From NCBI GenBank assembly GCA_965222605.1, contig OZ244960.1, positions 1,472,001 through 1,536,000 on the forward strand: a DNA stretch of 64,000 nucleotides, given 5' to 3'. Below are positions 8,707 to 28,048 of the stretch, in pieces. Both the position numbers and the translations under genes were made by a program. Source of the DNA: Candidatus Latescibacterota bacterium (GTDB taxonomy: Bacteria; Latescibacterota; UBA2968). Within the stretch, counting starts at the first letter, position 1, and each line of letters starts with the position of its first letter. The notes beneath the pieces were generated by a model. That model saw only the letters and a list, made by a program, of their open reading frames with translations, was not told the DNA's origin and did no database searches.

Positions 8707-9495
8707 TTACGATTTCGACGCCAGATAAATAGTTGCAATCCCAAAGCTCAACCGAACCGCCTGTATATTGACAAATCCCGCATCGGACAACCGCCGGCAA
8801 AAATCATCACCTTCGGGAAAACGCATCACAGATTCGTACAAATAGCGGTAGGCATTTGGGTCGCGGGAGACCATGTGTCCAATACGAGGCAAAATACGCT
8901 GAAAATAAAAATTGTAAAGGCCGCGAAACACAGGGGTTCGCGGCCTCGAAAACTCCAGCACAGCCACGCGCCCACCCACCTTGAGCACGCGACACATCTC
9001 ACTCAGAGCCGTTTCCAACTCGGCCACATTGCGAATGCCAAATCCGATTGTCACGCCGTCAAATGTCCCCTCACCAAACGGCAGACACTCCCCATCGCCA
9101 CACAGAAACGCGACCGGATTTGCTCGCGACCCATTTTTTTTTTCGCCCTCGCGCAACATCGGCACCGAAGGATCGACACCAATCACCTGAATATCGACAG
9201 CGCGTTTGCCGCATTCAAACCCCAAATCGCCCGTGCCCGTAGCCAGATCTAAAATTCGCCAGTTCGGCCCGGGTTGCAATTGATCAATAGTCTTTTTTCG
9301 CCAAACAATATCAATACCCATGCTCAACAGGTGATTGAGCAGATCGTATCTGTGGGCAATCCCGTCAAACATCTGCCGCACAAAAGCGCGCTTAGCTTCA
9401 GGTTCAAGCAGCACATCGCGCGCGATACCTGTCGATCGTGGGCTATGCTTGTGCTCACCTCTCATTTTTTGTGCCGACCCGTTTGACAACGACAT
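8707..9495 (-). CDS. ubiE: UbiE/MenG demethylmenaquinone C-methyltransferase
   Basis: MFDGIAHRYDLLNHLLSMG, LDLATGTGD SAM motif, FGIRNV, AYRYLYESV. Confidence 0.92.
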   Translation of the reverse strand: MSLSNGSAQKMRGEHKHSPRSTGIARDVLLEPEAKRAFVRQMFDGIAHRYDLLNHLLSMGIDIVWRKKTIDQLQPGPNWRILDLATGTGDLGFECGKRAVDIQVIGVDPSVPMLREGEKKNGSRANPVAFLCGDGECLPFGEGTFDGVTIGFGIRNVAELETALSEMCRVLKVGGRVAVLEFSRPRTPVFRGLYNFYFQRILPRIGHMVSRDPNAYRYLYESVMRFPEGDDFCRRLSDAGFVNIQAVRLSFGIATIYLASKS

Positions 9496-10333
9496 TTTTC
9501 ATCACATCAGTCGGTGGCTCAACACCCGTCCAGATAGCAAAAGATCGCGCCCCTTGAAAGACCAGCATATCCAGTCCCCCAAAAGCCGGCGCACCAACCG
9601 ATTGAAACGCGCGCATCAACTGCGTTTTCAGCGGATTGAACACCGTATCGTAGAGCACCAAATCCAGATGGACAGCGCGCACATCGGCAAGAGGCGAAGC
9701 ATTGACCTCGGGATACATCCCCAGCGAAGTGGTATTCACAACCACGCCCGCATCGGCAAACGCCCGGCATTGTGTATCGGCATCCAGCGCGCCCACATCC
9801 ATTTTTGTACCCGTTATTTTTTCCATATCCATCGCCAGAGCCTCCGCGCGCTTGATCGTGCGATTCAAAATCGTCACCCGCTGCACACTCTCTTGCGTCC
9901 CCAGCGCATACGTCACAGCGCGGGCAGCCCCACCGGCGCCGAGCACCACGCAATGTGCGGGAAATGTCTTAATCCCCGCAATATCGCGCAACGCCGTCAA
10001 GACGCCATAGACATCCGTATTATATCCAACCAGCTCACCATCTTCGCGCGAAATAGTATTAACCGCACCCACAGCCAGTGCTTCTTCTGAAATGCGATCC
10101 ATGTGTTCCATCACCGACAGCTTGTGCGGAATAGTCACATTTAATCCGCGAATATTCAATCCGCGCAACCCCTTCATCGCCTCGCTCACGCGGTCGGGCA
10201 ACACGTGAAAAGCCACATAACAATAATCCACATCTAATGCGGCGATTGCGGCATTGTGCATATCGGGAGAAAACGAATGAGCCACCGGGTCACCAATAAC
10301 GCCCAGTACCTGACTTGTTGCGCGAATATTCAT
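9455..10333 (-). CDS. aroE: Shikimate dehydrogenase
   Basis: HSFSPDMHN, NVTIPHK, GAVNT, NTD, GAGGAARA, GLDMLVFQG; ATG at 10333 overlaps the upstream TGA. Confidence 0.95.
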   Translation of the reverse strand: MNIRATSQVLGVIGDPVAHSFSPDMHNAAIAALDVDYCYVAFHVLPDRVSEAMKGLRGLNIRGLNVTIPHKLSVMEHMDRISEEALAVGAVNTISREDGELVGYNTDVYGVLTALRDIAGIKTFPAHCVVLGAGGAARAVTYALGTQESVQRVTILNRTIKRAEALAMDMEKITGTKMDVGALDADTQCRAFADAGVVVNTTSLGMYPEVNASPLADVRAVHLDLVLYDTVFNPLKTQLMRAFQSVGAPAFGGLDMLVFQGARSFAIWTGVEPPTDVMKNVVVKRVGTKNER

Positions 10334-10488
10334 CAAGATTTCCGATTGCCATCCAGCAAATCATTCACAAACTCATCGGCAATATCAAAACTTTCCTTCC
10401 ACGAGCAGTCATAAGTATAGCGTATAAACGCCACACCGCCCAGGATCATCAAAATCGCACACATCGCGAGCTTAAAAAGTATTCTCAT
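10333..10488 (-). CDS. Small 51-aa single-pass membrane protein (absent from the ORF track)
   Basis: MRILFKLAMCAILMILGGVAFIRYTYDCSWKESFDIADEFVNDLLDGNRKS*; AGAGGTGA RBS upstream; TGATG stop/start overlap with aroE; fills the gap exactly. Confidence 0.7.
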   Translation of the reverse strand: MRILFKLAMCAILMILGGVAFIRYTYDCSWKESFDIADEFVNDLLDGNRKS

Positions 10489-10491
10489 ATT

Positions 10492-11142
10492 TCACCTCTT
10501 TTGTTGAACAAGGTTCGATAAACACGCAAATAACCCGGCGAAATCGCGGCACATATCACCCGTATTTGACACCTGAGTTTCGCCCTCGGCTGCCAATCCT
10601 GCCAGTGCAAAGGCCAATCCCGTACGGGCATCGCCGCCGGCATCGACCTCTGTTCCCTGAAGGCGCACAGGCCCCTGCACCACCAGGCCATCGGGCATTT
10701 CGCCTACCTTAGCCCCCATTTGACGCAAATTTTGAATCACCAGTGACAGGCGGTCGATCTCCCCCTGTCGCAAGCCCTCTCCATCTCGAATAACCGTTTC
10801 GCCCGCGGCCTGCGTACCCAGCACAGCGAGAAAAGGCACTTCTCGAATAAATAAATCGGTCTGCTCGCCCCCTATGCGCGTGCGCCGCAATTCAGACCCC
10901 TGGACTTTAATCGTACGCGTCACTTTTGCCTTTGATCGCGTCACCTGAATGTCCAATTGCGCATTCAACCGCCGCAACAAATCCAATGCGCGTCGGGTCT
11001 TCCAATCGTCGCCCACGCAGTGAAGAGTCAAATCCGACTGCGATAACATCGCCGCAACACCGAGCAAATACAGCGTGGTCTCGGGATCTCCCGGTACATC
11101 GCATTCCCCAATAAGCCCACGCGCTTCTTTTACCTCATACAT
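10492..11142 (-). CDS. Half-length, single-domain EPSP synthase (AroA)-like protein with degenerate active site
   Basis: 216 aa; N-terminal GLIGECDVPGD runs directly into the AroA C-terminal half (GETVIRD, EIDRL, QMGAKV, DGLVVQG, GDART); about 210 aa of the other domain are absent. Confidence 0.75.
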   Translation of the reverse strand: MYEVKEARGLIGECDVPGDPETTLYLLGVAAMLSQSDLTLHCVGDDWKTRRALDLLRRLNAQLDIQVTRSKAKVTRTIKVQGSELRRTRIGGEQTDLFIREVPFLAVLGTQAAGETVIRDGEGLRQGEIDRLSLVIQNLRQMGAKVGEMPDGLVVQGPVRLQGTEVDAGGDARTGLAFALAGLAAEGETQVSNTGDMCRDFAGLFACLSNLVQQKR

Positions 11143-11152
11143 ACTGCTCTCC

Positions 11153-12262
11153 CTAACGCAACCGCACTTGATAACCCGCATCTCGCAAAATTTCGACAGA
11201 CCGCTCGGCTTCCTCCTGTTGCCCAAACCCCATCCGAATCGTCCCCCCTTCGCCCTCGCGCACTTTCAGGACTTCAATATCTTTGATATTGATCCCCTCG
11301 GCAGATAGACGCGATGCAACATCGGCAATAATACCAGGTTTGTCTTCTGCCACCAGCAAAATTTCGTGAAGCGGATGCAAAAAACCCTTGGAATCTCTGG
11401 GAATCTCCCCCCGAATGCGATTGGCATAGTCAAAATCTTCCGATAGTGCTTCTCGATCCACCTTCTCTCGTATCGCCGCAAGCGCGTCGAGATACGCATC
11501 GATCATCTCTCGAATAGGACCGGCATTCGTCTGACAAATATCTCGCCACATCGCAAACGGACTGGAGGCAATGCGCGTCAAATCGCGGAACCCACCCGCT
11601 GCCATTTGCAGGGGGAGACCATCGGCCTCATTGAGCCTGCCCACCAATCCCACGAGAGTGGTAGCCATCATCTGCGGCAAATGACTCACCGTCGCCGCGA
11701 CCCGATCATGCGTCTCGGCATCCATACGCATAGAACGCGCCCCAATGCATTGCACCAGTGCTGCAAGCGCATCCACAATTTTGTTGGGAACACCGCTTGC
11801 GGGCGTGAGAACATAAAGCGCGTTTTCAAACAAAAAGGGATCGGCTGCACCCACGCCGCTCTTTTCCGATCCCGCCATAGGATGCCCGCCCACAAAATGG
11901 ACATCTTCACGCGCGACCTGTTCTGCACATGCGACAATCGCGCCCTTTGTGCTGCCCACGTCTGTGATAATGCAACCCGGCGAGGCCGCTTGTACGACCG
12001 CGGACAACTGCTCCAGAATACGCACAATGGGCGAACACAAAAATACCAGATCTGACCGTTTTACGCCATTGTCCATTTCGTCGTATTCATAGCCACTGTC
12101 AATCACATCGAGCGCACGGGCCTCTCGCAGGGTCTCCGCGCGGCTAATACCAATAATCTCGCGCCCAATACCCAGTCGCTTAAACGCCAACCCCAATGAC
12201 CCGCCAATCAACCCCACACCCACAATGGCAATCGTCGCATCTCTAAATAGAGGATCGTTCAT
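11153..12262 (-). CDS. tyrA: Prephenate/arogenate dehydrogenase with C-terminal ACT domain
   Basis: GVGLIGGSL, TDVGSTK, GGHPMAGSE, SHLPQ, GFRDLTRIASS; EDKPGIIA ACT motif. Confidence 0.92.
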   Translation of the reverse strand: MNDPLFRDATIAIVGVGLIGGSLGLAFKRLGIGREIIGISRAETLREARALDVIDSGYEYDEMDNGVKRSDLVFLCSPIVRILEQLSAVVQAASPGCIITDVGSTKGAIVACAEQVAREDVHFVGGHPMAGSEKSGVGAADPFLFENALYVLTPASGVPNKIVDALAALVQCIGARSMRMDAETHDRVAATVSHLPQMMATTLVGLVGRLNEADGLPLQMAAGGFRDLTRIASSPFAMWRDICQTNAGPIREMIDAYLDALAAIREKVDREALSEDFDYANRIRGEIPRDSKGFLHPLHEILLVAEDKPGIIADVASRLSAEGINIKDIEVLKVREGEGGTIRMGFGQQEEAERSVEILRDAGYQVRLR

Positions 12263-12594
12263 ATTGGTGACCCAATTTCTAAATCCAAGGCAAATAAGAT
12301 AGCGTTTTTGATCTCTCTCATCACATTATCTGAAAGTTTGCCAAGCCTTCTTTCAAGCCGAACTTTCGGTACAGAACCGAGTCCCTGTACATTGGCATAA
12401 GAATCTTGATTCAGAAACCTCAACTTTGGCAGTACCACTTCGTAGGGACTTTCCCTGTATTGGGTTGTTAAAGGGATATAAGTTATCATAGCTCGTGGTG
12501 GGTCTGAATCGTAGCGAGATACCACGAGAACAGGTCGTGTTTTTGCAGCTAAACCGAGATCCGCTAGCCAGATCTCACCGGGTTGTGGGTTCAT
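12259..12594 (-). CDS. PemK/MazF family toxin
   Basis: QPGEIWLADLG, KTRPVLVVS, IPLTT; 111 aa; overlaps the upstream small ORF. Confidence 0.85.
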   Translation of the reverse strand: MNPQPGEIWLADLGLAAKTRPVLVVSRYDSDPPRAMITYIPLTTQYRESPYEVVLPKLRFLNQDSYANVQGLGSVPKVRLERRLGKLSDNVMREIKNAILFALDLEIGSPI

Positions 12595-12760
12595 CGAGTA
12601 GATTCAAAACCTCCTGTTCTACGGAACGCGATTGCATTATATCCAGGACATCCTGGTCTGCGAGATCGATAATTTCCGCAATGCGTTCCCTAACTTCCAC
12701 TACAGTATTGGGTTTCCATTCGCGTAATTTTGCGTCTAATTTTTCAGCTAACACATCCAT
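12575..12760 (-). CDS. Putative antitoxin
   Basis: 61-aa acidic ORF overlapping the toxin start, GGAGGA RBS; call rests on position. Confidence 0.65.
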   Translation of the reverse strand: MDVLAEKLDAKLREWKPNTVVEVRERIAEIIDLADQDVLDIMQSRSVEQEVLNLLDEPTTR

Positions 12761-12773
12761 TGCCTTTCCTCCA

Positions 12774-13061
12774 TTAGGCTGCTTGCGGTTTGACGTAAAC
12801 TTCGACTTGCATCCCCGCCAGCGTCAGCATATTAATCAATTTATCCACGCTAAACCGACGAATATCTCCCTGCATTAAATTACTAATGCGCGGCTGGGAT
12901 TCGCCAAAAAATGTAGCGGCTTGACTCTGGGTCCACCCCTTCGTTTCAATGTACTTTCTCAAGTCAAGCATTAAATCAGCCCGAACTTTTAAGCTCGCGG
13001 CTTCTTCCCGATCAAAACCGATATCTTCAAATACATTATCGCTTCCTTGAGTCACTTCCAT
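12774..13061 (-). CDS. XRE/HigA-like HTH protein (orphan antitoxin)
   Basis: GSDNVFEDIG, WTQSQAA, QPRISNL, FSVDKLINML; no HigB/RelE toxin upstream. Confidence 0.8.
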   Translation of the reverse strand: MEVTQGSDNVFEDIGFDREEAASLKVRADLMLDLRKYIETKGWTQSQAATFFGESQPRISNLMQGDIRRFSVDKLINMLTLAGMQVEVYVKPQAA

Positions 13062-13085
13062 AACGTCGTATCCTGTTCATTGGTT

Positions 13086-15515: not shown

Positions 15516-16541
15516 TTAAACCAAACCCGCCAATTCCTTCACAAACACTTCTGTATCTTCCCACCCCAGGCATGGATCAGTAATCGATTTCCCAAATATC
15601 CCCTCTTCGGGTTTTTGCGCGCCTTCCTCCAGATAACTCTCCACCATCAACCCGCGCACCACATTGTGAAGAAGCGAAGAATGGCGTCGGCTGCGCATCA
15701 CCTCCAGGCCAATGCGCGGCTGTTCGGAGAACGTTTTATTTGAATTGTTGTGATTGGTATCCACAATAATCGTCGGATTGCTCAGCTTCCGCGCCAGATA
15801 TTGCCCGGCAATATGGACCAAATCTTCGTAGTGATAATTGGGAAGACTTCGCCCGCTATATGCCACCCCGCGCAACACCGCATGCGTCAGCGAATTGCCC
15901 GACGTGCTAACTTCCCAACCATTGTGAAAAAACACATGCGGAATTTGTGCTGCATAAATGGCATTGAACATCACATCCAAATCCCCACCCGTTGGGTTTT
16001 TCATACCCGCAGGCACATCGACACCGCTAATAGTCAAGCGATGATTCTGATTTTCAACAGACCGCGCCCCCACGGCAATATAACTCAGCAAATCCTCCAC
16101 ATAAGGCAAATTCGAAGGATAGAGCATCTCATCGGCAGCCGTCAAATGCGACTCGCGAAAAGCGCGAATTTGCATCTTTCGAATGGTCTTAATCCCAACA
16201 ACCATATCGGGCGTACCTTCGGGATCGGGCTGGTGGGCCATGCCCTTATACCCCTCGCCAGTCGTGCGCGGTTTATTGGTATAAATCCGCGGCACGAGCA
16301 CCAATTTATCCACCACCTGCTCTTGAAGCCGCGCCAGGCGATTCACATATTCACACACCGCATCGACATTGTGGGCCGAGCACGGGCCAATAATCAACAA
16401 AAACTTATCGCTCTTGCGCTCAAAAATAGTCCGAATCTCGGCATCGCGTTCTTCTTTCTTAGCCTTCAAATCATCGGGCAGAGGCAAAGCGTCTTGGATT
16501 TCTTCCGCGCTGGGAATGGGCTGAATCCGTTTGAAACTCAT
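15516..16541 (-). CDS. aroF: DAHP synthase, class I-alpha
   Basis: IIGPCSAH, KPRTTGEGYKG, VGARS, GMKNP, DTNHNNS, SITDPCLGW; feedback-isozyme identity cannot be determined. Confidence 0.9.
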   Translation of the reverse strand: MSFKRIQPIPSAEEIQDALPLPDDLKAKKEERDAEIRTIFERKSDKFLLIIGPCSAHNVDAVCEYVNRLARLQEQVVDKLVLVPRIYTNKPRTTGEGYKGMAHQPDPEGTPDMVVGIKTIRKMQIRAFRESHLTAADEMLYPSNLPYVEDLLSYIAVGARSVENQNHRLTISGVDVPAGMKNPTGGDLDVMFNAIYAAQIPHVFFHNGWEVSTSGNSLTHAVLRGVAYSGRSLPNYHYEDLVHIAGQYLARKLSNPTIIVDTNHNNSNKTFSEQPRIGLEVMRSRRHSSLLHNVVRGLMVESYLEEGAQKPEEGIFGKSITDPCLGWEDTEVFVKELAGLV

Positions 16542-16561
16542 AAGAATACCTTTTTTACGAC

Positions 16562-16750
16562 CTGATGTTACGCATGTCTCGCGTTTCTGTCATGCTGAGG
16601 CGGGCGCAATGAATCTCCTGCGCCCAACACCCGATAGGCTGACGAAGCATCTTTTACCTATGCATATCGTTCAGGCAGCAGATTCTTCGACTCCGCTGCG
16701 CTCCGCTCAGAATGACAGGCGCATTATATTGTGCCTATGCGTAACGTCAG
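16562..16750. mobile_element. 189-bp MITE-like element with 14-bp terminal inverted repeats and 7-bp target-site duplication
   Basis: Ends CTGATGTTACGCAT / ATGCGTAACGTCAG (13/14 match); TTACGAC at 16555-16561 and 16751-16757; internal palindromes TGTCATGCTGAG..CTCAGAATGACA and CGAAGCATCT..AGATTCTTCG. Confidence 0.85.
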
Positions 16751-17032
16751 TTACGACTCTGAATCTGCGTGATCTTCTTCCAACCGCAATGACTCATCGA
16801 TAATCTGTCTAAAAATGCGTTGCGCTGCTTCGTGACTCAAAGGACCGCCATTCAATTCGCGAATGCGGTTGAGAATCAGGGTTTCCCGTTCGGGGGCATG
16901 CAGGGGCAAACCCGTGGTACGCTTAATTTTTCCCACAGACAGGGCACACCGGGCACGCTCATTGAGCAACTCGAGAATCTGTTCATTTAAGGCATCGATT
17001 TTCTCGCGCCAGAAATCCAGATCCTTCTCCAT
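16751..17032 (-). CDS. Monofunctional chorismate mutase (AroQ class)
   Basis: WREKIDALNEQILELLNERA, GKIK, PERE, IFRQII; 93 aa. Confidence 0.9.
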   Translation of the reverse strand: MEKDLDFWREKIDALNEQILELLNERARCALSVGKIKRTTGLPLHAPERETLILNRIRELNGGPLSHEAAQRIFRQIIDESLRLEEDHADSES

Positions 17033-17035
17033 AAC

Positions 17036-17839
17036 CTACACACCTTCTCTCAAAGGGCCGATCAAAGACCCGACAAAAGCACCGACCTTTGAAACCAGAT
17101 CGACATCGTTTTGGTACTCTCCCACACGACGTACAATCGCGCTACCAACCACAACCGCATCGGCATACCGCGCAATTTCCGACACATGCTCAGGCGTTGA
17201 AATACCAAACCCAACGGCGATGGGCATATCTGTATGCTCGCATATCGCAGACACCTTATTTTGAATTTCATCGGCCAAAAAATCGCGTTCTCCCGTCACC
17301 CCGGTGCGCGATACATAATAGACAAAACCCCTGGTATGCGACACAATCATCTTCATCCGATCATCGCGCGTGGTAGGCGTCATGAGAAAAATCGTATCCA
17401 GCCCGTGTACATCCATCTGCGCTTTGTAATCGTCGCCCTCTTCCGGAGGCAAATCCAGTATCAGTACGCCATCTACCCCCACATCTGCGGCGCGTTTTAC
17501 AAAGCGCTCCACCCCATAGCGATGAATCGGATTATAATACGTAAACAGCACAATGGGGATTTCGGTCTCAGCCCGCAACTCTGCAACCATAGACAACACG
17601 CCCTCGAGCGTTGCACCTGCGGCCAAAGCGCGTTGTGACGCCTCCTGAATCACGGGGCCATCCGCCAAAGGGTCGGAAAAGGGAACACCCAATTCCAGGA
17701 CATCCACACCTCGCCGATCCAATTCCAATACTACCTGATGCGTAGTATTTAAGTCCGGATCGCCCGCCGTAATATACGCGACAAAGCCCGTCCTACCCGC
17801 TTTTCTCAAATCTTTAAACCGCTGTCCAATCCGCGTCAT
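17036..17839 (-). CDS. trpA: Tryptophan synthase alpha chain
   Basis: [42 protein letters not shown]; ATG 17839 overlaps the trpB stop. Confidence 0.96.
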
Positions 17840-19041
17840 CTCATTCCTTCTATAAATCGCGCCGCTTGTTGCACATCTTTGTCCCCACGTCCCGATAAAT
17901 TGACAATCACAATCTGATCTCGACTCATCTCGGATGCCAACTTGCAAACATGCGCAATAGCGTGTGAACTCTCCAAAGCGGGAATAATCCCTTCGGTATG
18001 ACTGAGCAACTCAAAAGCACTGAGTGCTTCCTCATCCGTCGCATACGTATAAGCCGTGCGCGCCATATCCCGCAAATAACAATGCTCTGGCCCCACGCCC
18101 GAATAATCGAGACCCGCCGATACCGAATGCGTCAATGCGATTTGTCCATCATCATCTTGCAACACATAAATGCGCGCACCGTGCAAAACCCCCAAATCGC
18201 CACCATTAAACCGCGCAGCGTGCTCGCCAGACGCAATACCGTGACCGCCGGCCTCCACACCGATCATCTGCACATCGGCATCATCCAAAAAAGCGTGAAA
18301 CAACCCGATAGAATTGCTTCCCCCGCCCACACAGGCGACGAGCACATCGGGCAATCGGCCTTCTCTCTCCAAAATTTGAGCGCGGGCTTCAACGCCAATA
18401 ACCCGCTGAAAATCGCGCACAATCATCGGATACGGATGCGGTCCCAAAACCGAACCAAAGATGTAAAACGTATCCTCCACATTGGTCACCCAGTCGCGGA
18501 TGGCCTCATTAATCGCATCTTTCAGCGTTTTGCTACCCGAATGGACGCCCGTAACTTTCGCACCCAAAAGTCGCATGCGAAACACATTGAGCGCTTGCCT
18601 TTCCATATCTTCAACACCCATGTAAATTTCGCATTTGAGACCGAACATCGCCGCCACAGTTGCCGTTGCCACGCCGTGTTGACCGGCACCTGTCTCGGCA
18701 ATAATCCGCGTTTTGCCCATTCGGTTGGCGAGCAAAATCTGCCCCATGGCATGATTGATTTTATGCGCGCCCGTATGGGCGAGATCTTCGCGCTTGAGAT
18801 AAATTTTAGGCCCGCCGAGTTCTTCTGTCAACCGCTCGGCAAAATAAAGCGGCGTGGGTCGTCCGACATAATCGCACAAGTATCGATCCAGTTCAGCCCA
18901 AAACTCCGGATCGCGCTTTGCCTCCCGATAAGCCGCCTCCAGGTCTTGCAACAGCGCCATAAGCGTTTCGGGCACATACTGCCCACCATAAGGCCCAAAA
19001 TGCCCGCGCGCATCGGGCAAATCACTCGCGTTTACAGCCAT
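17836..19041 (-). CDS. trpB: Tryptophan synthase beta chain
   Basis: [14 protein letters not shown] (PLP lysine), [28 protein letters not shown]. Confidence 0.97.
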
Positions 19042-19054
19042 ATTGTATATCCCC

Positions 19055-20032
19055 TTAAATATCGCTAACCACACGGTCGTAAAATGCCAAATACTGCTCG
19101 CGGTCATCACCATCGAGCAATGCCATTGCCTCGCGGGGATGCTGGTTGTGCTGGCCGGTGATGTTATAGGGAACCAGAGGCCCCCACTTCATTTCTCGGC
19201 GCAACTTGACAAAATGATCCTCCAACAACCTATAGACCGGACGGATCTTAAACTTGGGATTCCGCAAAAAACCGAGCAACAATTCCATGGGACAATTGCC
19301 GGCACCGCGCCCCAATCCATCCACTGTGGCATCGACCCGATTGGCCCCTAAAATAATGGCCTCAATAGTATTGGCAAATGCCAGTTGCTGATTGTTGTGC
19401 GCGTGAATACCCACCTCTTTGCCCGTGCCTTTGGTTGCTTCCATATATTTTCGCACGAGCATATCAACTTGCTCGCGGTACAGAGCACCAAAACTATCCA
19501 CAACGCAAATCGTGCCCACAGGGGTTTGCATCAACACTTCTAATGCCTGATCAATCTCGACATCTTGCACAGTCGAAATCGCCATAATATTACAACTCGT
19601 TTCATACCCCTTCTCATGGGCATCGAGCAACATTTCAACCGTCTCGGGAATCTGCTCGACATAACACGCCACGCGCACCATATCGACCACACTCTCACTG
19701 GATGGCAGAATATCTTGAGCCCAATCGCTCTTGCCCGCATCGGCCATAATTGCGAGTTTCATCCCCGTCGCTTCGGGGTCGTGATCTCCCGTAATTTTGC
19801 GAATATCCTCTTCATCGCTGTGGCGGAACGTACCAAAATCTCTTTTGGGGAACATCTCCTTGGAATTTCGGTACCCAATTTCCATATAGTCAACACCCGC
19901 CGCGACACAGGTTTCATACACGGCTTTCACAAAATCATCATCAAAATGATGGTCATTCATCAAACCGCCATCGCGGATTGTACAATCGAGTACCTTGAGT
20001 TCCGGGCGGTAGGTAATCCAGGGTGCTTTCAT
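19055..20032 (-). CDS. DRE-TIM metallolyase / HMGL-like aldolase catalytic-domain protein
   Basis: [29 protein letters not shown]; substrate unknown. Confidence 0.8.
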
Positions 20033-20134
20033 AAAAAAATCCTTCCTTTGGGGTTACGTAGTTGATCCAAATAAGTTCAGTGATCTGGCTCGTCAAAAAT
20101 CTGTCTTCTTTTGCCTATTGTAGCACCTACCCAG

Positions 20135-21418
20135 TCACACCAACCACCTCACCAAAAAGTAGCGGCGTTTGCCGCGGCGGATGACCAGATATTTTCCAGC
20201 CAGTCTTTCATCAGGCGTTAAGAGCCCGTGGCCCTCTTGCCAGCGCTGCCCATTGATATAAATGGCACCATTCCTGATATCTTCGCGCGCCTGCCGCCTG
20301 GACGATGAAATCCCGGCTCTCACGAGCAGATCAATCAGAATCACGCCACCTTCAGCATACAGAGTGCCTTTTCTTTCAACTTCATAAGACGGCACATCGC
20401 TACCAAATGCTTCTTCGATCTCCTGTTCATTCAAATCCTGCAAATTGCCGTAAAACAGCGCCTCGGAAATATGCACGGCGCGGGCCTTTGCGGCTGCACC
20501 GTGGATAAACGTCGTCACCTCTTCGGCCAGCACGCGCTGTGCCTCGCGCTTTTCGGGTCTCGCCTGCACTTCTCGTTCCAACTCTTCTATGCGTTCACGG
20601 CTCAAAAAAGTGAACAATTTTAAAAATTTCACCACATCGCGATCTGCTGCATTCACCCAAAACTGATAAAATTGATAGGGCGATGTCTTCTCGGGATCGA
20701 GCCATAATGTTCCCGTCTCGGTCTTCCCAAACTTTGTCCCATCCGACTTTTCCAGCAACGGGAAAGTCAACCCATACACAGTCTTATTGAGCATGCGCCG
20801 GCTCAGCTCTATACCCGCCGTAATATTGCCCCACTGATCGCTACCCCCAATCTGAAGCTCACAGCCATACTGTCGGTACAACTCCATAAAGTCATACGCC
20901 TGCAAGACCATATAACTAAATTCGGTAAACGAAATCCCGGTAGAAAGACGCGACGCCACCGACTCTTTGCCCAGCATATACCCCATTGAAAAGTGTTTGC
21001 CCACATCGCGCAAAAACTCAATCGTACGCAACTCTGAAAGCCAGGTATAATTGCTCACCATCTGCGCCGGATTGTGCACAGTCTCAAAATCCAAATACTT
21101 TTCCAACTGCTCCCGCTGACGCTCTGTATATCCCTGCACCACCTCCAATGAATTCAACTGTCGCTCTTCTGCTTTCCCACTCGGGTCGCCGATCAATCCC
21201 GTACCACCGCCCACGAGTGCAATGGGCTTGTGCCCCGCATCTTGAAAGCGGCGCAATCCCATAATAGGAACCAGACTGCCCGCATGCAGACTATCGGCTG
21301 TGGGATCAAATCCGCAATACAATGTCATCTGCCCCTCTGCCAAACGCCTGCGGAGCTTATCTTCATCTGTCATCTGAAAAATATAGCCACGAAATGCCAA
21401 ATCGTCTAATACATCCAC
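20135..21418 (-). CDS. tyrS: Tyrosine--tRNA ligase
   Basis: YCGFDPTADSLHAG, QIGGSDQWGNI, KFGKT, C-terminal S4 domain. Confidence 0.97.
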   Translation of the reverse strand: MDVLDDLAFRGYIFQMTDEDKLRRRLAEGQMTLYCGFDPTADSLHAGSLVPIMGLRRFQDAGHKPIALVGGGTGLIGDPSGKAEERQLNSLEVVQGYTERQREQLEKYLDFETVHNPAQMVSNYTWLSELRTIEFLRDVGKHFSMGYMLGKESVASRLSTGISFTEFSYMVLQAYDFMELYRQYGCELQIGGSDQWGNITAGIELSRRMLNKTVYGLTFPLLEKSDGTKFGKTETGTLWLDPEKTSPYQFYQFWVNAADRDVVKFLKLFTFLSRERIEELEREVQARPEKREAQRVLAEEVTTFIHGAAAKARAVHISEALFYGNLQDLNEQEIEEAFGSDVPSYEVERKGTLYAEGGVILIDLLVRAGISSSRRQAREDIRNGAIYINGQRWQEGHGLLTPDERLAGKYLVIRRGKRRYFLVRWLV

Positions 21419-21439
21419 GTTTTTATCTCCATATTCATA

Positions 21440-22048
21440 TCACGCCTTTACGCGCGCCAAAAAATCCCTCACTTTTTTGTGATCCTTCTTCCCCGGCTCG
21501 GCTTCTACGCCACTACTCGTATCCACCGCATAGGGACCAACTCGCTCAATCGCCTCCTGAACATTATCCGGATTTAGCCCACCGGAAAGAATAATGCGCC
21601 CATACCCTTTTGCCTCCACCGCCTTTATCCAGTCAAATGTCTTTCCCGTACCGCCGTAAGAACCCGCTCTCTCTGTATCCAATAAGAATGTATTGACCAG
21701 ATATGATCGCATGATCTGCACATCAAAATCGCGTCCCACGCGAAGCGCGCGAATCACAGGAACCGCATGCCCCAGACATGCTTCGGGAGGTTCATCCCCG
21801 TGCAATTGAATCGCCCGTAGCCCCGCCAACTTCACGGCAATATCAATCTCCCGCTCCGACGCATTCACGAACACCCCGACGGGCGTCACAAACGGCGGCA
21901 AATCAAAAACAATTTCTCCTGCTTTTTCGGGCGCGATATAGCGAAGACTCTTCTCATAAAAAATAAACCCCAGAGCATCTGCGCCATTATCAATCGCGCA
22001 TAGCGCATCATCCCGATTTGTAATCCCGCAAATTTTAGCTCGTACCAT
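21440..22048 (-). CDS. trpF: Phosphoribosylanthranilate isomerase
   Basis: KICGIT, QLHGDE, GGTGKTFDW, SGGLNPDNV, DTSSGVE. Confidence 0.95.
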   Translation of the reverse strand: MVRAKICGITNRDDALCAIDNGADALGFIFYEKSLRYIAPEKAGEIVFDLPPFVTPVGVFVNASEREIDIAVKLAGLRAIQLHGDEPPEACLGHAVPVIRALRVGRDFDVQIMRSYLVNTFLLDTERAGSYGGTGKTFDWIKAVEAKGYGRIILSGGLNPDNVQEAIERVGPYAVDTSSGVEAEPGKKDHKKVRDFLARVKA

Positions 22049-22829
22049 ACCCTATCAACTCCTGCAACTTGGCGGCAATATCCGATTCGCGCATCAAACT
22101 CTCGCCCACCAGCACGGCATCTGCACCCGCATCTCGAAGTGCGACAACATCCTCGCGCGTATAAATACCACTCTCGCTCACCGTCAACACGTCATCGGGG
22201 ATGTGATCGATCAACCCATAAGTCATATCCAGAGACGTATCAAAAGTTTTCAAATTTCGATTATTAATTCCAACAATCTCCGCACCCGCATCGAGCGCGA
22301 CCATCAGTTCTTCCCGCTCATGCACCTCCACCAGTGCATCCAGACCCAGCGCACGGCTCGTCGCTATAAATGAGGACAATTCTTCGGGCGTTAAAATCGA
22401 CACAATCAACAACACAGCCGAAGCCCCAATCGCGCGCGCTTCGTAAATCTGATAGGGATCAATCGTGAAATCCTTTCGCAAAATGGGCCGATCAACAACT
22501 GTTGAAATCTGAGTTAAATAATCCACCGAACCCTGAAAAAATTTCTCATCCGTCAATACCGAAAGCGCCGAAGCCCCATTTCTCACATAAATTTTCGCAA
22601 TACCCACCGCGTCAAAATCCCCGCGAATCACGCCCTTAGACGGCGATGCTTTTTTTACCTCGGCGATCACAGCAATATCGTCCCCATCTATCAGCCCATC
22701 AAAAAACGAAGGCGATCCTGGCGCATCTTCCGCCAACCGCGCCATCTCCTCAAACGGTGTCTGCGTCATACACCTGGCGAGGAACTCGCGTTTATACGCC
22801 ACAATTTTATCGAGAATATTGCTGGCCAT
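22035..22829 (-). CDS. trpC: Indole-3-glycerol phosphate synthase
   Basis: IAEVKKASPSKG, SVLTD, LRKDF, GINNRNL, SESGI. Confidence 0.96.
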   Translation of the reverse strand: MASNILDKIVAYKREFLARCMTQTPFEEMARLAEDAPGSPSFFDGLIDGDDIAVIAEVKKASPSKGVIRGDFDAVGIAKIYVRNGASALSVLTDEKFFQGSVDYLTQISTVVDRPILRKDFTIDPYQIYEARAIGASAVLLIVSILTPEELSSFIATSRALGLDALVEVHEREELMVALDAGAEIVGINNRNLKTFDTSLDMTYGLIDHIPDDVLTVSESGIYTREDVVALRDAGADAVLVGESLMRESDIAAKLQELIGYGTS

Positions 22830-22854
22830 AAAGTCCCACCATCCTCAGACAGGG

Positions 22855-23919
22855 CTAAAGCCACGACCGCGGGTCGGGAACAGACACCCATCCATTTTCG
22901 CGCACCGCCTGCAACCCCGCAATACCGGGCAGTGTCATATCCAGCGCCTGCATCAAATCTATCGGTGGTGGCGATCCATTCACAATCGCCTGCACAAAAT
23001 CCAAAACAATGAGCATACTCGTTTTGCCATGCCCCGCACCGAGCGCGCCCGAAAACTGGGGCAACTCGGGATGGCAACATTCTTCTCGCGTCACCTGCTC
23101 CTTATCGTCCAGAGAATAATAACACACCGTTCGTGCTTCGCGAAATCGCCCCGTCTCGAAAGAACCTTCATCGCCATAAAAACTCAAAAAATGGCTCATC
23201 CCATGCACATTCTGAAACGAATTTGTCAACCTGAACACCGCGCCGTCTGCAGTACGGAACAAAGCCGTCTGCACCCAGTCTGCTTCATACCCTTCTAAAA
23301 ATTCATCTCGCCCTGAAGCCGAAACAGCCATGACCTCAACCAAACGGTCGCCCGTCATCTTCAAATACGGCGATGTCCCATGTGTCGGATAAATAAGGGG
23401 TTGTAAACTATTCCGCCAGGTGGGTCGCCCATCGGGATGTCGCCTCAACGCTTTTAGACCGTGAATATACTCGGCCTCGGCATAGTAAATACGCCCCAGT
23501 TTCCGCGCTTCAAAAAGTGACCTGGCACGCACCACACTGGGTTCATAGATCCAATTCTCCGCCATCATATAAATGCGGTCACTTTTTGAAACGACCTCAA
23601 CCAATGCCTTTGCTTCATCCATTGTCAGCGCAGCGGGCACGGCACACAAAACGTGCTTACCAGCCCGAATCGCTCGAATCACATGTTCTGCATGAAGCGG
23701 CGCGGGAGTAAAAACAGCCACCGCGTCAATCCGTTCATCAGCGACAAAATCATCAAAAGCCGCATAACAAGCATCGACACCCAACAGCTCTTTCGCCTGA
23801 CCGCGTCTCTCCTGCTGGATATCACAAATAGCGACCAAATCAGTCTCGGCATACGCATCAAATACCCGCGCCCAGGACATGCCAAATCGCAAACCCGCAA
23901 CACCTACCGAGAGACCCAT
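22855..23919 (-). CDS. Gfo/Idh/MocA family oxidoreductase
   Basis: N-terminal Rossmann-like GVAGLRFG, TPAPLH, AGKHVLCAVP, MAENW, AEYIH. Confidence 0.85.
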   Translation of the reverse strand: MGLSVGVAGLRFGMSWARVFDAYAETDLVAICDIQQERRGQAKELLGVDACYAAFDDFVADERIDAVAVFTPAPLHAEHVIRAIRAGKHVLCAVPAALTMDEAKALVEVVSKSDRIYMMAENWIYEPSVVRARSLFEARKLGRIYYAEAEYIHGLKALRRHPDGRPTWRNSLQPLIYPTHGTSPYLKMTGDRLVEVMAVSASGRDEFLEGYEADWVQTALFRTADGAVFRLTNSFQNVHGMSHFLSFYGDEGSFETGRFREARTVCYYSLDDKEQVTREECCHPELPQFSGALGAGHGKTSMLIVLDFVQAIVNGSPPPIDLMQALDMTLPGIAGLQAVRENGWVSVPDPRSWL

Positions 23920-23942
23920 TTTACCTCACTCCATCTCGAAAA

Positions 23943-24956
23943 TCATTCCTGGCTCGCTTCTTTCAACCCTTCCAACTTCTCCAACGCCTTGCCCGAATCA
24001 ATCACTTCAGCCGCGACCTGCACACCTTCTTGTAAATCACGCGCCTTATCTCCCGCCACAATTGCCGCAGCCGCATTCAACAACACTATATCGCGCCGAG
24101 GACCTTCTTCGCCATTCAGAATCGACCGCGTAATCTCTGCATTATAATCGGCATCCCCTCCTTTTAGCGCGTCGGCTGTGGCTTGTCCCAGCCCAAAGTC
24201 CCCAGGTGATACGTCATACGTCGAAACCGATCCAGCCTTCAATTCGCTCACCTTCGTTGGACCTGTCAACGTCATCTCATCCAAACCATCCAAACCGTGA
24301 ACGACAAACGCGCGCTCAGATCCCAGAGTTGCCAAAACACCCGCGAGTGTCTCGGTCAATGCCGCGCTGTAAACGCCGACCACCTGCCGCTTTGCACCCG
24401 CCGGATTGCTCAGCGGTCCCAGCGCATTGAAAATTGTCCGCGCACCAATTTCCCGACGCGGCCCAATCGCGTATTTCATCGCCCCGTGCAATGAAATGGC
24501 GAACAAAAACCCGATACCCACATCGTCCAGACACCTGCTCACCGTCTCGGGCGATGCCTCAATATTCACACCCAATGCACTCAGCACATCCGCACTGCCA
24601 CTTTGACTCGTCGCCGCGCGATTGCCGTGTTTGGCCACACACAAACCCGCCCCAGCCGCGACAAATGCCGCCGTTGTCGAAATATTAAATGTGCCCGAAT
24701 GATCGCCCCCCGTGCCACAAGTATCGACAATCACATCGTGCTTTGTCACAATAGGCGTCGCCTTCTCGCGCATCACAGACGCTGCCCCGGCAATCTCATC
24801 AACACTCTCGCCCTTCACGCGCAACGCAATCAAAAACGCACCAATCTGCGCGTCCGTCGCCTCGCCCGACATAATCTGATTCATCGCATCCGTCATCTCA
24901 CCTCGGTGCAAATCTTCGCCTTCGATCACTTTTGCAATTGCTTCTTGTATAGTCAT
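23943..24956 (-). CDS. trpD: Anthranilate phosphoribosyltransferase
   Basis: DTCGTGGD, FNISTT, KHGNR, SGSADVL, GLDE; start at ATG 24956 after a GAGGAG RBS. Confidence 0.96.
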   Translation of the reverse strand: MTIQEAIAKVIEGEDLHRGEMTDAMNQIMSGEATDAQIGAFLIALRVKGESVDEIAGAASVMREKATPIVTKHDVIVDTCGTGGDHSGTFNISTTAAFVAAGAGLCVAKHGNRAATSQSGSADVLSALGVNIEASPETVSRCLDDVGIGFLFAISLHGAMKYAIGPRREIGARTIFNALGPLSNPAGAKRQVVGVYSAALTETLAGVLATLGSERAFVVHGLDGLDEMTLTGPTKVSELKAGSVSTYDVSPGDFGLGQATADALKGGDADYNAEITRSILNGEEGPRRDIVLLNAAAAIVAGDKARDLQEGVQVAAEVIDSGKALEKLEGLKEASQE

Positions 24957-24978
24957 GCTCAGCTCCTCGGGTAACAAA

Positions 24979-25542
24979 TCACGTATCGAGAAAGTTTTGC
25001 AGCAAATTCTTACCTTCACCCGTCAAAATCGATTCGGGATGAAACTGCACGCCATCTATCGCCATATCTCGATGGCGCAAACCCATAATCACGCCATCAT
25101 CGGTCTCAGCCGTAATCTCCAGACAAATGGGAAGACTTTTCCGCTCCACCACCAGCGAATGGTAGCGCGTGGCAATAAACGGATCGGGTAGTCCCTCAAA
25201 AATAGACTGCCCTCTATGATGAATCTCCGACACCTTCCCGTGCATAATTGTCGGCGCGCCCACAATTTTCCCGCCAAATGCCTGCCCAATGGACTGATGC
25301 CCCAGACAAACCCCTAAAATCGGAATTTTCCCCGCAAAATGCTGTACCAAAGCCACGGAAATCCCCGCTTCATTTGGTGTGCATGGCCCGGGAGAAATAA
25401 CGATCTTCTCGGGCGCGATATCCGCAATCTCTTCAAGTGAGATTTGATCATTGCGATGCACCACCAACTCCGCACCCAGTTCCCCGAGATATTGAACGAG
25501 GTTATAAGTAAAAGAATCGTAATTATCAATGACGAGAATCAC
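24979..25542 (-). CDS. trpG: Anthranilate synthase component II
   Basis: [33 protein letters not shown]. Confidence 0.95.
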
Positions 25543-27014
25543 AACAACTCTCCTCCTTCAGCCATTTCTACCGCCCGAAACAGTGCCCGCGCTTTGTTCA
25601 CAGTCTCCTCATATTCGTATTCCGGCTCTGAATCGAACACCACGCCACCCCCTGCCTGCACATACGCTTTGCCATCCTTAATCACCAGCGTGCGAATGGC
25701 AATACACGTATCCATATTGCCCGCAAAATCGATATAACCCACCGCACCGGCATAAGGCCCGCGGCGCGTTGACTCCATCTCGTCGATAATCTCCATCGCC
25801 CGAATTTTTGGCGCGCCCGACACCGTGCCAGCCGGATAACAGGCAAAAAGCGCGTCCAGCGCATCGACACCCTCGTGCAATTCGCCGCGCACATTCGAAA
25901 CAATATGCATCACATGCGAATAGCGTTCAATCGACATCTGCTCGGTCACGCGCACCGTATCAAACCTGGAGACACGCCCCACATCATTGCGCCCCAAATC
26001 CACTAGCATAATATGCTCGGCGCATTCTTTTTTATCGGCCAACAAATCCTCTGACAGCACCTGATCCTCTGCCTCTGTTTTGCCGCGCCACCGCGTACCC
26101 GCAATGGGCCGCACCTGCACCACTCCGTCCTCTACCCTGACGAGCAACTCGGGCGACGCACCCACCAATTGATGGTCCTTCAAATCGACGTGAAACATAT
26201 AAGGCGACGGATTCACCGTCCGCAACGCCCGATAAATATCCAGCGCATCCACCGTCACATCCATTGCAAAGCGCTGCGAAGGCACCACCTGAAAAATATC
26301 ACCGGCCACAATGTATTCCCTGCAACGCGCCACCACATCCATATACGCTTCTTTGCTCGTATTTGAAGTCACCTCGCACGAACTCGTGCCCGATTTCAGA
26401 GACGCATCCACCGGTTGCGCCAGTGCCTCAATCAGTGTATCAATCCGTTTGACTGCATCTGCGTAATTCGCCTCCAGGTCGCCCTCTGTATGCACATTGG
26501 TCATCACATGCACTTTGTGCGTCACATTGTCAAAAGCCAGCACTGAATCGTAAAATGACAAAAATATATCGTCCAGACCGAGATCGTCTTCAACCGTCTC
26601 GGGAATGCGCTCAATCAAACGCACGGCATCATAGCTCACATAGCCCACCGCACCACCCGTAAATCGAGGAAACCCTTCTACGTGTTGCGAGTGGTATTTT
26701 TTTAACAACCCGCGCAATTCCTCAATTGGCTTCCCATCAAATTTTCGCACCTCACCCGTCGTCGTATGTTCAATCGAAATTTTTGTTCCGCGCGAACGAA
26801 AAATCAGAAATGGATCCACGCCCAAAAACGAATACCGCCCAATCTGCACACCGCCCACCACACTTTCAAACAAAAACGCATGCGATGATCTGGCGCGAAT
26901 TTTCAAATAGGCCGAAACGGGCGTCTCTGTATCCGCGAGAAGTTCTCTTGAAATGGGAATCAGACCACAGCCTTCGCTCAGCTTCTTCACAGTTTTGAAA
27001 TCGGGTTGAATCAC
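25539..27014 (-). CDS. trpE: Anthranilate synthase component I
   Basis: [44 protein letters not shown]; GTG start at 27014 after AAGGA. Confidence 0.95.
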
Positions 27015-27026
27015 TGGAAAATCCTT

Positions 27027-27066
27027 AAAAAAATAAAAAAGGTCGTGAGCAGTTTGCCCACGACCT
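27027..27066 (-). terminator. Intrinsic terminator (attenuator) upstream of trpE
   Basis: Minus strand AGGTCGTGGGCA-AAC-TGCTCACGACCT stem (12 bp, one G-U pair) running into a T6-A-T7 tract. Confidence 0.9.
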
Positions 27067-27092
27067 CGTACTTTCATTCACTTACATCACAC

Positions 27093-27197
27093 TTAACACG
27101 CAGGACAAACCACACTCTTGGACGGGCGGCGATAATAATAATATCGACCGTCAAATCGACGCCAAAAATACCAAAAATGGGTTGCAAAAGCGTTCAT
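27093..27197 (-). CDS. Attenuator leader peptide rich in Phe/Trp/Tyr (34 aa)
   Basis: MNAFATHFWYFWRRFDGRYYYYRRPSKSVVCPAC*; AAGGA RBS at 27208-27212; lies between the promoter and the terminator in front of trpE. Confidence 0.88.
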   Translation of the reverse strand: MNAFATHFWYFWRRFDGRYYYYRRPSKSVVCPAC

Positions 27198-27238
27198 CAC
27201 ACCAAATTCCTTAAACAAGAGTTATGTCAGATGCGCCA

Positions 27239-27268
27239 AAGATAACAAATTCTAAAACAAATTGTCAA
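27239..27268 (-). promoter_or_regulatory. sigma70-type promoter of the leader/trp run
   Basis: TTGACA (27268-27263), 18-nt spacer ending in TGT (extended -10), TATCTT (27244-27239). Confidence 0.75.
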
Positions 27269-27277
27269 GTAGGAAGT

Positions 27278-28048
27278 TTATTCGTGGCCGTCAATCGTGC
27301 CCACCTCAATTTTCAACTCATCGCGGTCAATAATGCGATCTACGCGGCCATCGCGCACCCACACCACGCGGTCGGATACCGACAGCATCTTGTGATCGTG
27401 CGTCGCTGAAATCACGGTCACGCCCGACTCCTCGTTCATCCGGCGCAACAACTCAATAATCTCCCGCCCCGTATTCAAATCGAGATTTCCAGTCGGCTCG
27501 TCAGCCAGAATAATCGCTGGATCGTTGGCAAAGGCCCGCGCAACAGCCACGCGTTGCTGCTGACCACCTGAAAGCTCATAAGGCTTGTGCATCACGCGCT
27601 CGCCCAGACCGACCTGTGTCAACAACCCTACGCCCTTGTCGCGCGCCTCGTCGCTCGTCAGCCCGGCAAACACCATCGGCAGGGTCACATTCTCAAGCGC
27701 CGTCATCACCGGAATCAAATTATAAGATTGAAAAATATAACCGATCTTTCGGCAGCGCAACCACGCGAGTTCATAAGCGTCGAGTTGGGCGACATCTACA
27801 TCGTCGATATAAACCTTGCCTTCGGTCGGCTTGTCCAATCCACCCACCATATTAAACAGAGTACTCTTCCCCGAACCAGAAGGTCCCATGATGGACAGGT
27901 ATTCGCCCTGCGTCACTTCCAGATCCACTCCTCTGAGTGCGTGAATCTGCTCTTCGCCCATTATGTACACCTTCTTCACATCTTGCGTGCGTACAATAGT
28001 TGCCTGTTCGGCCTCTGCATTTGTTTCTGTTTTTTCTTCGGCAGCCAT
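27278..28048 (-). CDS. ABC transporter ATP-binding protein (LolD/MacB-like)
   Basis: GPSGSGKST, LSGGQQQRVA, ILADEPTGNLD, THD. Confidence 0.9.
   Translation of the reverse strand: MAAEEKTETNAEAEQATIVRTQDVKKVYIMGEEQIHALRGVDLEVTQGEYLSIMGPSGSGKSTLFNMVGGLDKPTEGKVYIDDVDVAQLDAYELAWLRCRKIGYIFQSYNLIPVMTALENVTLPMVFAGLTSDEARDKGVGLLTQVGLGERVMHKPYELSGGQQQRVAVARAFANDPAIILADEPTGNLDLNTGREIIELLRRMNEESGVTVISATHDHKMLSVSDRVVWVRDGRVDRIIDRDELKIEVGTIDGHE

Follow-up and report, generated by a model that had tools for sequence, protein, structure and literature searches.

A candidate leader-peptide attenuator with mixed aromatic codons upstream of trpE in a Candidatus Latescibacterota genome

Results and Discussion

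Organisation of the trpE leader locus

The window analysed here is a 64,000-nucleotide stretch of contig OZ244960.1 (assembly GCA_965222605.1, positions 1,472,001 to 1,536,000 of the forward strand) from Candidatus Latescibacterota bacterium, and all coordinates refer to it. Between an ABC-transporter gene and trpE the minus strand carries a candidate attenuator. Its parts, in the direction of transcription, are as follows.

27268..27239, minus strand: promoter-like site P1 (TTGACA, 18 nt spacer, TATCTT), with 10 of 12 positions matched in the promoter scan and TG before the -10 element
27212..27208, minus strand: leader ribosome-binding site AAGGA, 10 nt upstream of the leader ATG
27197..27093, minus strand: leader ORF of 34 codons plus stop (ATG at 27197, TAA at 27095-27093) with four Phe, two Trp and five Tyr codons
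27183..27171 with 27121..27108, minus strand: helix predicted by folding, whose 5' strand holds part of the FWYFW block
27176..27162, minus strand: FWYFW block, leader codons 8-12
27149..27128, minus strand: predicted hairpin with the tandem Tyr codons in the loop and inner stem and the flanking Arg codons in the outer stem
27143..27132, minus strand: four tandem TAT (Tyr) codons, leader codons 19-22
27110..27099, minus strand: antiterminator 5' strand (segment 2), formed by the last codons of the leader ORF
27067..27039, minus strand: intrinsic terminator stem-loop of 13 pairs (7 G-C) with a 3-nt loop, -20.7 kcal/mol when folded alone
27062..27052, minus strand: antiterminator 3' strand, made up of the terminator loop and the inner part of its 5' arm
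27040..27027, minus strand: T-rich tract of the terminator, 14 nt, with the trpE ribosome-binding site directly after it
27026..27022, minus strand: trpE ribosome-binding site AAGGA
27014..25539, minus strand: trpE, anthranilate synthase component I, GTG start at 27014

The initial annotation of this region had described the promoter, the ribosome-binding site and the 34-codon ORF with its FWYFW block and four TAT codons, and all of these were found on the minus strand. It had also described a 12-bp hairpin with a long U tract just before trpE; the hairpin is there, but the terminator scan counts 13 pairs. The pairing that it proposed between the 3' end of the ORF (27117-27099) and the terminator core exists as well, in the narrower form of 11 pairs with one bulge between 27110..27099 and 27062..27052. 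The P1 element is also kept in a sister genus of the same family, and alignment places purine-rich sites in the relatives at the position equivalent to the leader AAGGA.

Because the T tract runs straight into the AAGGA and GTG of trpE, the gap between terminator and gene has no room for a promoter, and expression of trpE in this genome therefore needs read-through of the terminator. The terminator scan found no separate terminator between the ABC-transporter gene and the leader.

The leader is unusually rich in aromatic codons. Their background frequency is 9.3% of 1.21 million codons (2015 long ORFs), which gives a binomial probability of 1.7e-4 for at least 11 among 34, and the aromatic fraction of the leader is matched by 11 of the 21,671 ATG-started ORFs of 25-45 amino acids in the genome. 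An Rfam scan of 26000..28000 at E values up to 10 found no leader family and no T-box. It returned six matches to unrelated families (E 1.6 to 9.5), which lie far below the gathering scores and were rejected as chance level.

The aromatic amino acid operon

The genes downstream of trpE encode enzymes of Trp synthesis, Tyr synthesis and the common aromatic pathway, together with a tyrosyl-tRNA synthetase (tyrS).

25542..15516, minus strand: rest of the likely controlled operon, beginning with trpG, trpD, a GFO/IDH/MocA oxidoreductase, trpC and trpF, then tyrS, and continuing after tyrS, in order and to 15516, with an HMGL-like aldolase, trpB, trpA, chorismate mutase, a repeat element and DAHP synthase
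21418..20135, minus strand: tyrS (TIGR00234, 410 bits), the sole tyrS in the genome
17032..16751, minus strand: chorismate mutase, type II
between chorismate mutase and DAHP synthase: repeat element of about 190 nt
16541..15516, minus strand: DAHP synthase, AroFGH-type
12262..9455, minus strand: tyrA (with an ACT domain), a truncated aroA, and aroE

A downstream run of trp genes, tyrS, tyrA, chorismate mutase and shikimate genes had been noted before. These genes are present, but in this genome a stretch of about 3.3 kb with unrelated genes (a peptidase-like gene, a WD40 gene and a toxin-antitoxin pair) stands between the block and tyrA, aroA and aroE, and aroA itself is truncated. Relatives carry DAHP synthase, tyrA, aroA and aroE in direct succession, so that the ancestral unit of the order was probably an aromatic supraoperon of 12-14 genes. 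The operon contains no Phe-specific gene; pheA is found elsewhere in the genome, directly behind another ORF and with no leader upstream.

The same genome has at least two more candidate leader-peptide attenuators. One is a Thr/Ile/Val-rich leader before an acetolactate-synthase-like gene, and the other is an Asn/Asp-rich leader before a class II aminoacyl-tRNA synthetase gene.

Conservation of the leader in relatives

The host lineage is uncultured and is associated with sponges and corals. The trpE loci of 30 relatives from 8 genera and 2 families were collected, two of them cut by contig ends, and a homologous leader ORF and terminator were present in 28 of the 28 trpE upstream regions with enough sequence. 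A covariance model (R1) built on the 3' half of the leader and the terminator gave a single strong full-length match in 52 of the 53 genomes of the order, the one miss being a contig cut at trpE. For the 49 of these 52 matches whose coordinates were compared, trpE lies on the same strand no more than about 425 nt downstream. Among 151 sampled genomes of the phylum, R1 found one true relative outside the order at E values up to 1e-4. The weak matches (at position 1829036 of genome G000, and in G098 and G137) were ordinary gene-end terminators and were discarded. A record named Latescibacteria bacterium UBA2968, with 72% TrpE identity, carries a leader of the same kind. A search of genome contigs for related loci gave distant trpE loci only, and these served as contrast cases.

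What is conserved in the leader peptide is its aromatic and Arg content and not its sequence. Alignment of the trpE upstream regions shows that the aromatic codons shift in position and identity between genera while the enrichment persists, and that compensatory changes are present in the RNA.

The distance between terminator and gene varies among the relatives. In the window and in 12 of the 20 species of its genus the gap from the T tract to trpE is 11-16 nt; most relatives outside the subclade of the window have 65-250 nt between terminator and trpE. Many relatives have a second promoter-like site of TTGACA type in this interval, seen by eye and recovered by the promoter scan at two of the three loci tested, and in those relatives it would bypass the attenuator.

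Metatranscriptome contigs, which derive from relatives (the runs held 0.05-0.15 of the sampled words), bridge leader, terminator and trpE in two studies; they do not give transcript ends or levels, and DNA was possibly present. One such contig covers the ABC-transporter gene, the leader and trpE. Another ends at 27070, just ahead of the hairpin, although the end of a contig is not the end of an RNA.

Codon-level and RNA-level constraint

The two halves of the leader ORF appear to evolve under different rules. In the 28-sequence alignment every indel that separates members of the genus in the aromatic block is 3 or 6 nt long, and these indels are whole Tyr codons or two-codon losses in the Phe/Trp codon block. 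Gain and loss of Tyr codons is also visible in one metatranscriptome contig. Synonymous variation within the genus affects one Phe codon (the first of the FWYFW block, TTT or TTC) and one Gly codon. From the 3- and 6-nt indels and the synonymous changes we infer that the leader ORF is translated, and its aromatic half appears to behave as coding sequence.

The last dozen bases of the ORF, which form the 5' strand of the antiterminator, seem instead to behave as structured RNA. They contain invariant columns in the 28-sequence alignment, although different lineages read them in two frames, giving four different tripeptides. In one genus the strand falls just after an earlier stop codon and is hence untranslated. 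The upper terminator stem is invariant across the order, including a G-U pair.

The terminator and antiterminator helices

Covariation was found in both helices. In the terminator 99.4% of alignment cells are paired, three pairs show compensatory change, and none of 500 shuffles reached its score. In the eight-pair core of the antiterminator 79.5% of cells are paired, compared with at most 63.9% when the partner strand is slid, and one core pair appears as UA, AU, CG and GU. The sister family and the outgroups have another sequence in the terminator arm, and the 3' end of the leader matches that arm; the match has a shuffle p of 0.03 or less in 10 of the 22 sequences scored. This deeper comparison between families appears to give stronger covariation evidence than the alignment. 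Within the genus of the window the antiterminator seems weak, since single sequences give a duplex of -12.7 kcal/mol with p of 0.16 to 0.91 against shuffles, and the case for it comes from comparison between genera and families.

Folding with ribosome masks, as already suggested for this locus, gave a divided result. With the full transcript at equilibrium the terminator has a probability of about 0.95 at every ribosome position, so the switch must be kinetic, as in the classical case. With transcripts cut before the 3' arm of the terminator and a 28-nt ribosome mask, the predictions changed in the proposed manner: in 11 of 11 lineages the antiterminator was predicted with an upstream stall and never with the ribosome on the last codons or the stop codon. 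Its probability for each stalled codon varied with the assumed 5' end, codons 9-14 being low in one model, and cut transcripts without a ribosome still gave the antiterminator at 0.3-1.0. When the full 5' leader is included, the minimum-energy fold contains a helix like the 1:2 pairing of classical leaders, but this helix is not robust across models. RNAalifold on 28 sequences returned the terminator and a 3-bp helix only, with neither the Tyr hairpin nor the 1:2 helix; both of these are per-sequence predictions or were spotted by eye. The folding models are not decisive for the switch.

Leader codons and the synthetase gene

The amino acids encoded by the leader vary with the synthetase gene in the operon. 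In the order of the window and one neighbouring family tyrS lies between trpF and trpB (17 of 17 loci). All 35 leaders of these tyrS-carrying families keep the aromatic enrichment and have more Tyr than Trp codons; each has 1-3 Trp codons, and tandem Trp codons occur in none. The sister family has trpS (TIGR00233, 371 bits) between trpC and tyrA in 15 of 15 loci, and its leaders have at least as many Trp as Tyr codons in 15 of 15 cases, with tandem Trp codons in 14. This pattern suggests that leader codons track operon content, and it fits the Tyr run as a working sensor placed for tyrS and tyrA. In an unrooted TrpE tree the trpS family forms one clade (100/100) and the tyrS group falls in two parts. 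The association of leader codons with tyrS or trpS is accordingly one or two evolutionary changes and not 32 independent ones.

The three amino acids are not equally well placed as signals. Tyr is most likely sensed: its tandem codons stand at the critical position, and leader composition correlates with the presence of tyrS or trpS. Sensing of Trp, which draws on one or two isolated Trp codons, can be argued well and is plausible overall. Phe may be sensed too, and of the three its case is the weakest: leaders across the phylum have Phe codons alongside Trp codons, and one outgroup with a Phe- and Trp-rich leader has trp genes only in the operon stretch seen. Judged from these codon patterns, it seems fairly probable that the leader responds to two or more aromatic amino acids. 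That one peptide acts as an OR gate for the charging of Tyr-, Trp- and Phe-tRNA, set before a supraoperon of 12-14 genes and with its codons rewritten together with the synthetase gene, is a more tentative proposal to which we give slightly less than even weight.

Proposed mechanism

The anatomy of the locus, its conservation, the constraint at codon and RNA level and the covariation are the observations behind the following model, in which ribosome stalling, a kinetic choice between helices and the identity of the relevant amino acids are deduced. Transcription would start from P1 and the 34-codon leader would be translated. With charged aromatic tRNAs in good supply, the ribosome would reach the stop codon and cover the antiterminator strand; the 13-bp terminator would then form and the transcript would end in the T tract, with 12 nt left to the start of trpE. 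Under shortage of a cognate charged tRNA, the ribosome would stall at the aromatic codons (8-12, 15 and 19-22), about 20 nt or more upstream of the antiterminator strand, and would leave that strand free. The free strand would pair with the 5' arm and loop of the terminator as soon as these are transcribed, and RNA polymerase would read on into trpEGD-CF, tyrS, trpBA, chorismate mutase and DAHP synthase. Of the regulatory codons, the Tyr run is nearest to the switch and would most likely report on Tyr-tRNA; the one or two Trp codons would report on Trp-tRNA, and the Phe codons would perhaps report on Phe-tRNA. This geometry, in which the antiterminator is masked by a ribosome that reaches the stop codon and freed by a stall at codons 8-22, was already part of the initial annotation, and it has gained support from the order-wide conservation, the in-frame indels and the covariation.

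Alternative explanations

The aromatic codons need not all be regulatory. A real attenuator could sense a single amino acid (Trp, or Tyr alone), the other aromatic codons being structural or inherited, and in Trp leaders throughout the phylum some Phe and Tyr codons do stand next to the Trp runs, independently of what the operon contains. The Tyr codons of the window and the Arg codons that flank them lie in a predicted hairpin, which would put the Tyr codons under structural constraint as well, and the aroR leader of Corynebacterium glutamicum responded to Phe limitation only, according to the review PMC11802643. We nevertheless consider a single sensor unlikely, given the excess of Tyr over Trp codons in every leader of the tyrS-carrying families, the retention of Trp codons (1-3 per leader) though these are never tandem, the turnover of aromatic codons between genera with the enrichment maintained, and an operon whose genes cover Trp, Tyr and the common pathway. 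A different possibility is that promoter, leader and terminator mainly form a stand-alone unit whose short RNA or peptide acts in trans, control of trpE being secondary. Separate transcription is conceivable in the many relatives with a second promoter-like site, and PMC7968998 and PMC7298713 supply a precedent in Sinorhizobium meliloti. Against this reading, trpE needs read-through in the window and in the 12 of 20 species of its genus with the 11-16 nt gap; in addition, the feature that is conserved is complementarity to the terminator arm, while the peptide sequence is unconserved beyond its aromatic and Arg content, and a trans-acting unit is thus improbable.

The terminator might also be controlled by a protein or by direct binding of a ligand to RNA (TRAP-like, T-box-like or riboswitch-like), the ORF being incidental. 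The invariant upper stem with its G-U pair goes beyond the requirements of a plain terminator and might be a binding site, yet a strand with two pairing partners already explains strong conservation. Control of this kind leaves the frame-preserving indels and the aromatic codon enrichment unexplained, and with only chance-level matches in the Rfam scan at E values up to 10 we regard it as very improbable. A last possibility is an unregulated locus in which a chance ORF happens to adjoin the ordinary terminator of the ABC-transporter operon upstream. The interval between the ABC-transporter gene and the leader does lack a terminator of its own, and one metatranscriptome contig spans that gene, the leader and trpE. 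Retention of the whole unit across the order (52 of 53 genomes), the codon-level constraint and the rarity of so high an aromatic fraction (11 of 21,671 comparable ORFs) make this explanation close to negligible.

We therefore favour a classical ribosome-mediated attenuator before trpE with mixed aromatic regulatory codons. The locus has all the structural features of this class that could be looked for, except a robust 1:2 hairpin. That it is a real attenuator is highly probable; the statement as a whole, mixed regulatory codons included, we hold to be moderately probable.

Comparison with known systems

The thr and ilv operons of enterobacteria have multivalent leaders, in which one peptide contains codons for several amino acids. 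The leader described here resembles them in that the amino acids it encodes have pathways with genes in the one operon behind it; it differs in that the thr and ilv leaders concern the branched-chain amino acids and Thr, not the aromatic ones. The candidate before the acetolactate-synthase-like gene of this genome is of the thr and ilv type. For tyrS, control by the T-box is known. In the literature searched, which covered subscription journals thinly, there was no leader-peptide control of tyrS, no such element in this phylum and no leader combining Phe, Trp and Tyr codons, although surveys in subscription journals may hold similar ones.

In mechanism the unit works like Escherichia coli trpL (summarised in PMC11802643). 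There too a short ORF with cognate codons lies near the promoter, the antiterminator and terminator helices exclude each other, the terminator is the more stable of the two, and the antiterminator strand is masked once a ribosome stands at the stop codon. The differences lie in the details. The window leader has no Rfam match, though Rfam includes enterobacterial leader models. Its Trp codons are isolated (one or two) rather than tandem, and Tyr and Phe codons dominate. The stop codon stands at the end of the antiterminator strand, with no robust 1:2 anti-antiterminator predicted. The operon also carries tyrS, chorismate mutase and DAHP synthase.

In the literature searched, the nearest cases were the aroR leader and the Streptomyces trpS and leuS attenuators. 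Synthetase genes behind leaders with cognate codons have parallels in the leader-peptide attenuator of E. coli pheST (PMC11802643) and in those of Streptomyces trpS and leuS (PMC1262725), from which the window differs in that its tyrS lies inside a biosynthetic operon. The aroR leader of C. glutamicum, with its Phe-Tyr-Phe sequence upstream of aroF, also has more than one kind of aromatic residue and also places an aromatic pathway operon under the control of ribosome stalling. It was the sole experimentally studied leader with mixed aromatic codons in the literature searched. However, aroR has two amino acids without Trp and controls aroF, with no trp or synthetase genes, and Tyr availability was without effect (Neshat et al. 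2014, via PMC11802643), so that by analogy this precedent would count against multi-sensing. The trp attenuator of S. meliloti, for which PMC7968998 and PMC7298713 describe a trans-acting RNA and leader peptide, is similar in its position upstream of trpE and in a terminated product that might act on its own; the window differs in that its peptide is not conserved in sequence.

The new part of the system is thus the codon mix, and the mechanism itself is classical. Textbook leader peptides sense one amino acid or the branched-chain group, and an all-aromatic mix would widen this repertoire with a leader that fronts an operon uniting Trp synthesis, Tyr synthesis, the common shikimate steps and tyrS. 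The locus also documents candidate leader-peptide attenuation in an uncultured lineage associated with sponges and corals, and so compact a switch could be used to sense how far aromatic tRNAs are charged. The same switch occurs with a Trp run and trpS in one family and with a Tyr run and tyrS in others, which provides a ready comparative test.

Gene content and interruption of the supraoperon

The trp/aromatic supraoperon of the window carries additional genes, a repeat element, a shortened aroA and an inserted gene group, located as follows.

Window 22855-23919: GFO/IDH/MocA oxidoreductase gene, within the trp operon
Window 19055-20032: HMGL-like aldolase gene, within the trp operon
Window 16560-16750: repeat of ~190 nt that makes up the DNA separating the chorismate mutase and DAHP synthase genes
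Window 12259-15489: inserted genes between DAHP synthase and tyrA (peptidase-like, WD40-repeat, and an antitoxin/PemK-MazF-like pair)
Window 10492-11226: truncated aroA, covering only EPSP synthase profile positions 225-404

Neither the oxidoreductase nor the aldolase is known to have a role in aromatic synthesis. Among the loci compared, the oxidoreductase gene occurs in the trp operon of the window only, and the aldolase gene is common to the window and several relatives. DAHP synthase and tyrA adjoin each other in relatives but are separated in the window by the inserted group. The repeat has 20 matches in the genome, several of them near full length at 75-92% identity, and resembles a small mobile or REP-like element that has entered the supraoperon. 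Besides the truncated aroA, the genome encodes two full-length members of the EPSP synthase family elsewhere.

trpE and its upstream region in relatives

Between the attenuator terminator and trpE, most relatives conserve a second promoter-like site (for example at L169:385-414 and L168:668-697, two trpE loci of relatives), and the window has no such site in this interval. In the sister family, which has trpS in the operon and Trp-run leaders, 46 of the 64 genomes sampled, whole genera included, gave no hit to trpE with an E-value of 1e-100 or below, and these organisms may be Trp auxotrophs.

Other leader-peptide attenuator candidates

At least two further candidates are found elsewhere in the window's own genome (G000).

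L183:164-244 (G000:3782663-3782743), + strand: second candidate, 26-codon ORF with abundant Thr, Ile and Val codons
L184:186-284 (G000:3792185-3792283), + strand: third candidate, ORF of 32 codons in which Asn and Asp codons form a run

The Thr/Ile/Val-rich ORF is accompanied by a terminator and by a promoter-like site of the TTGACA type. The gene immediately 3' of this candidate is acetolactate-synthase-like; its 601-aa product contains the N, M and C domains of TPP enzymes. The Asn/Asp ORF is followed by a strong terminator and then by a class II aminoacyl-tRNA synthetase gene of the Asp/Lys/Asn type.
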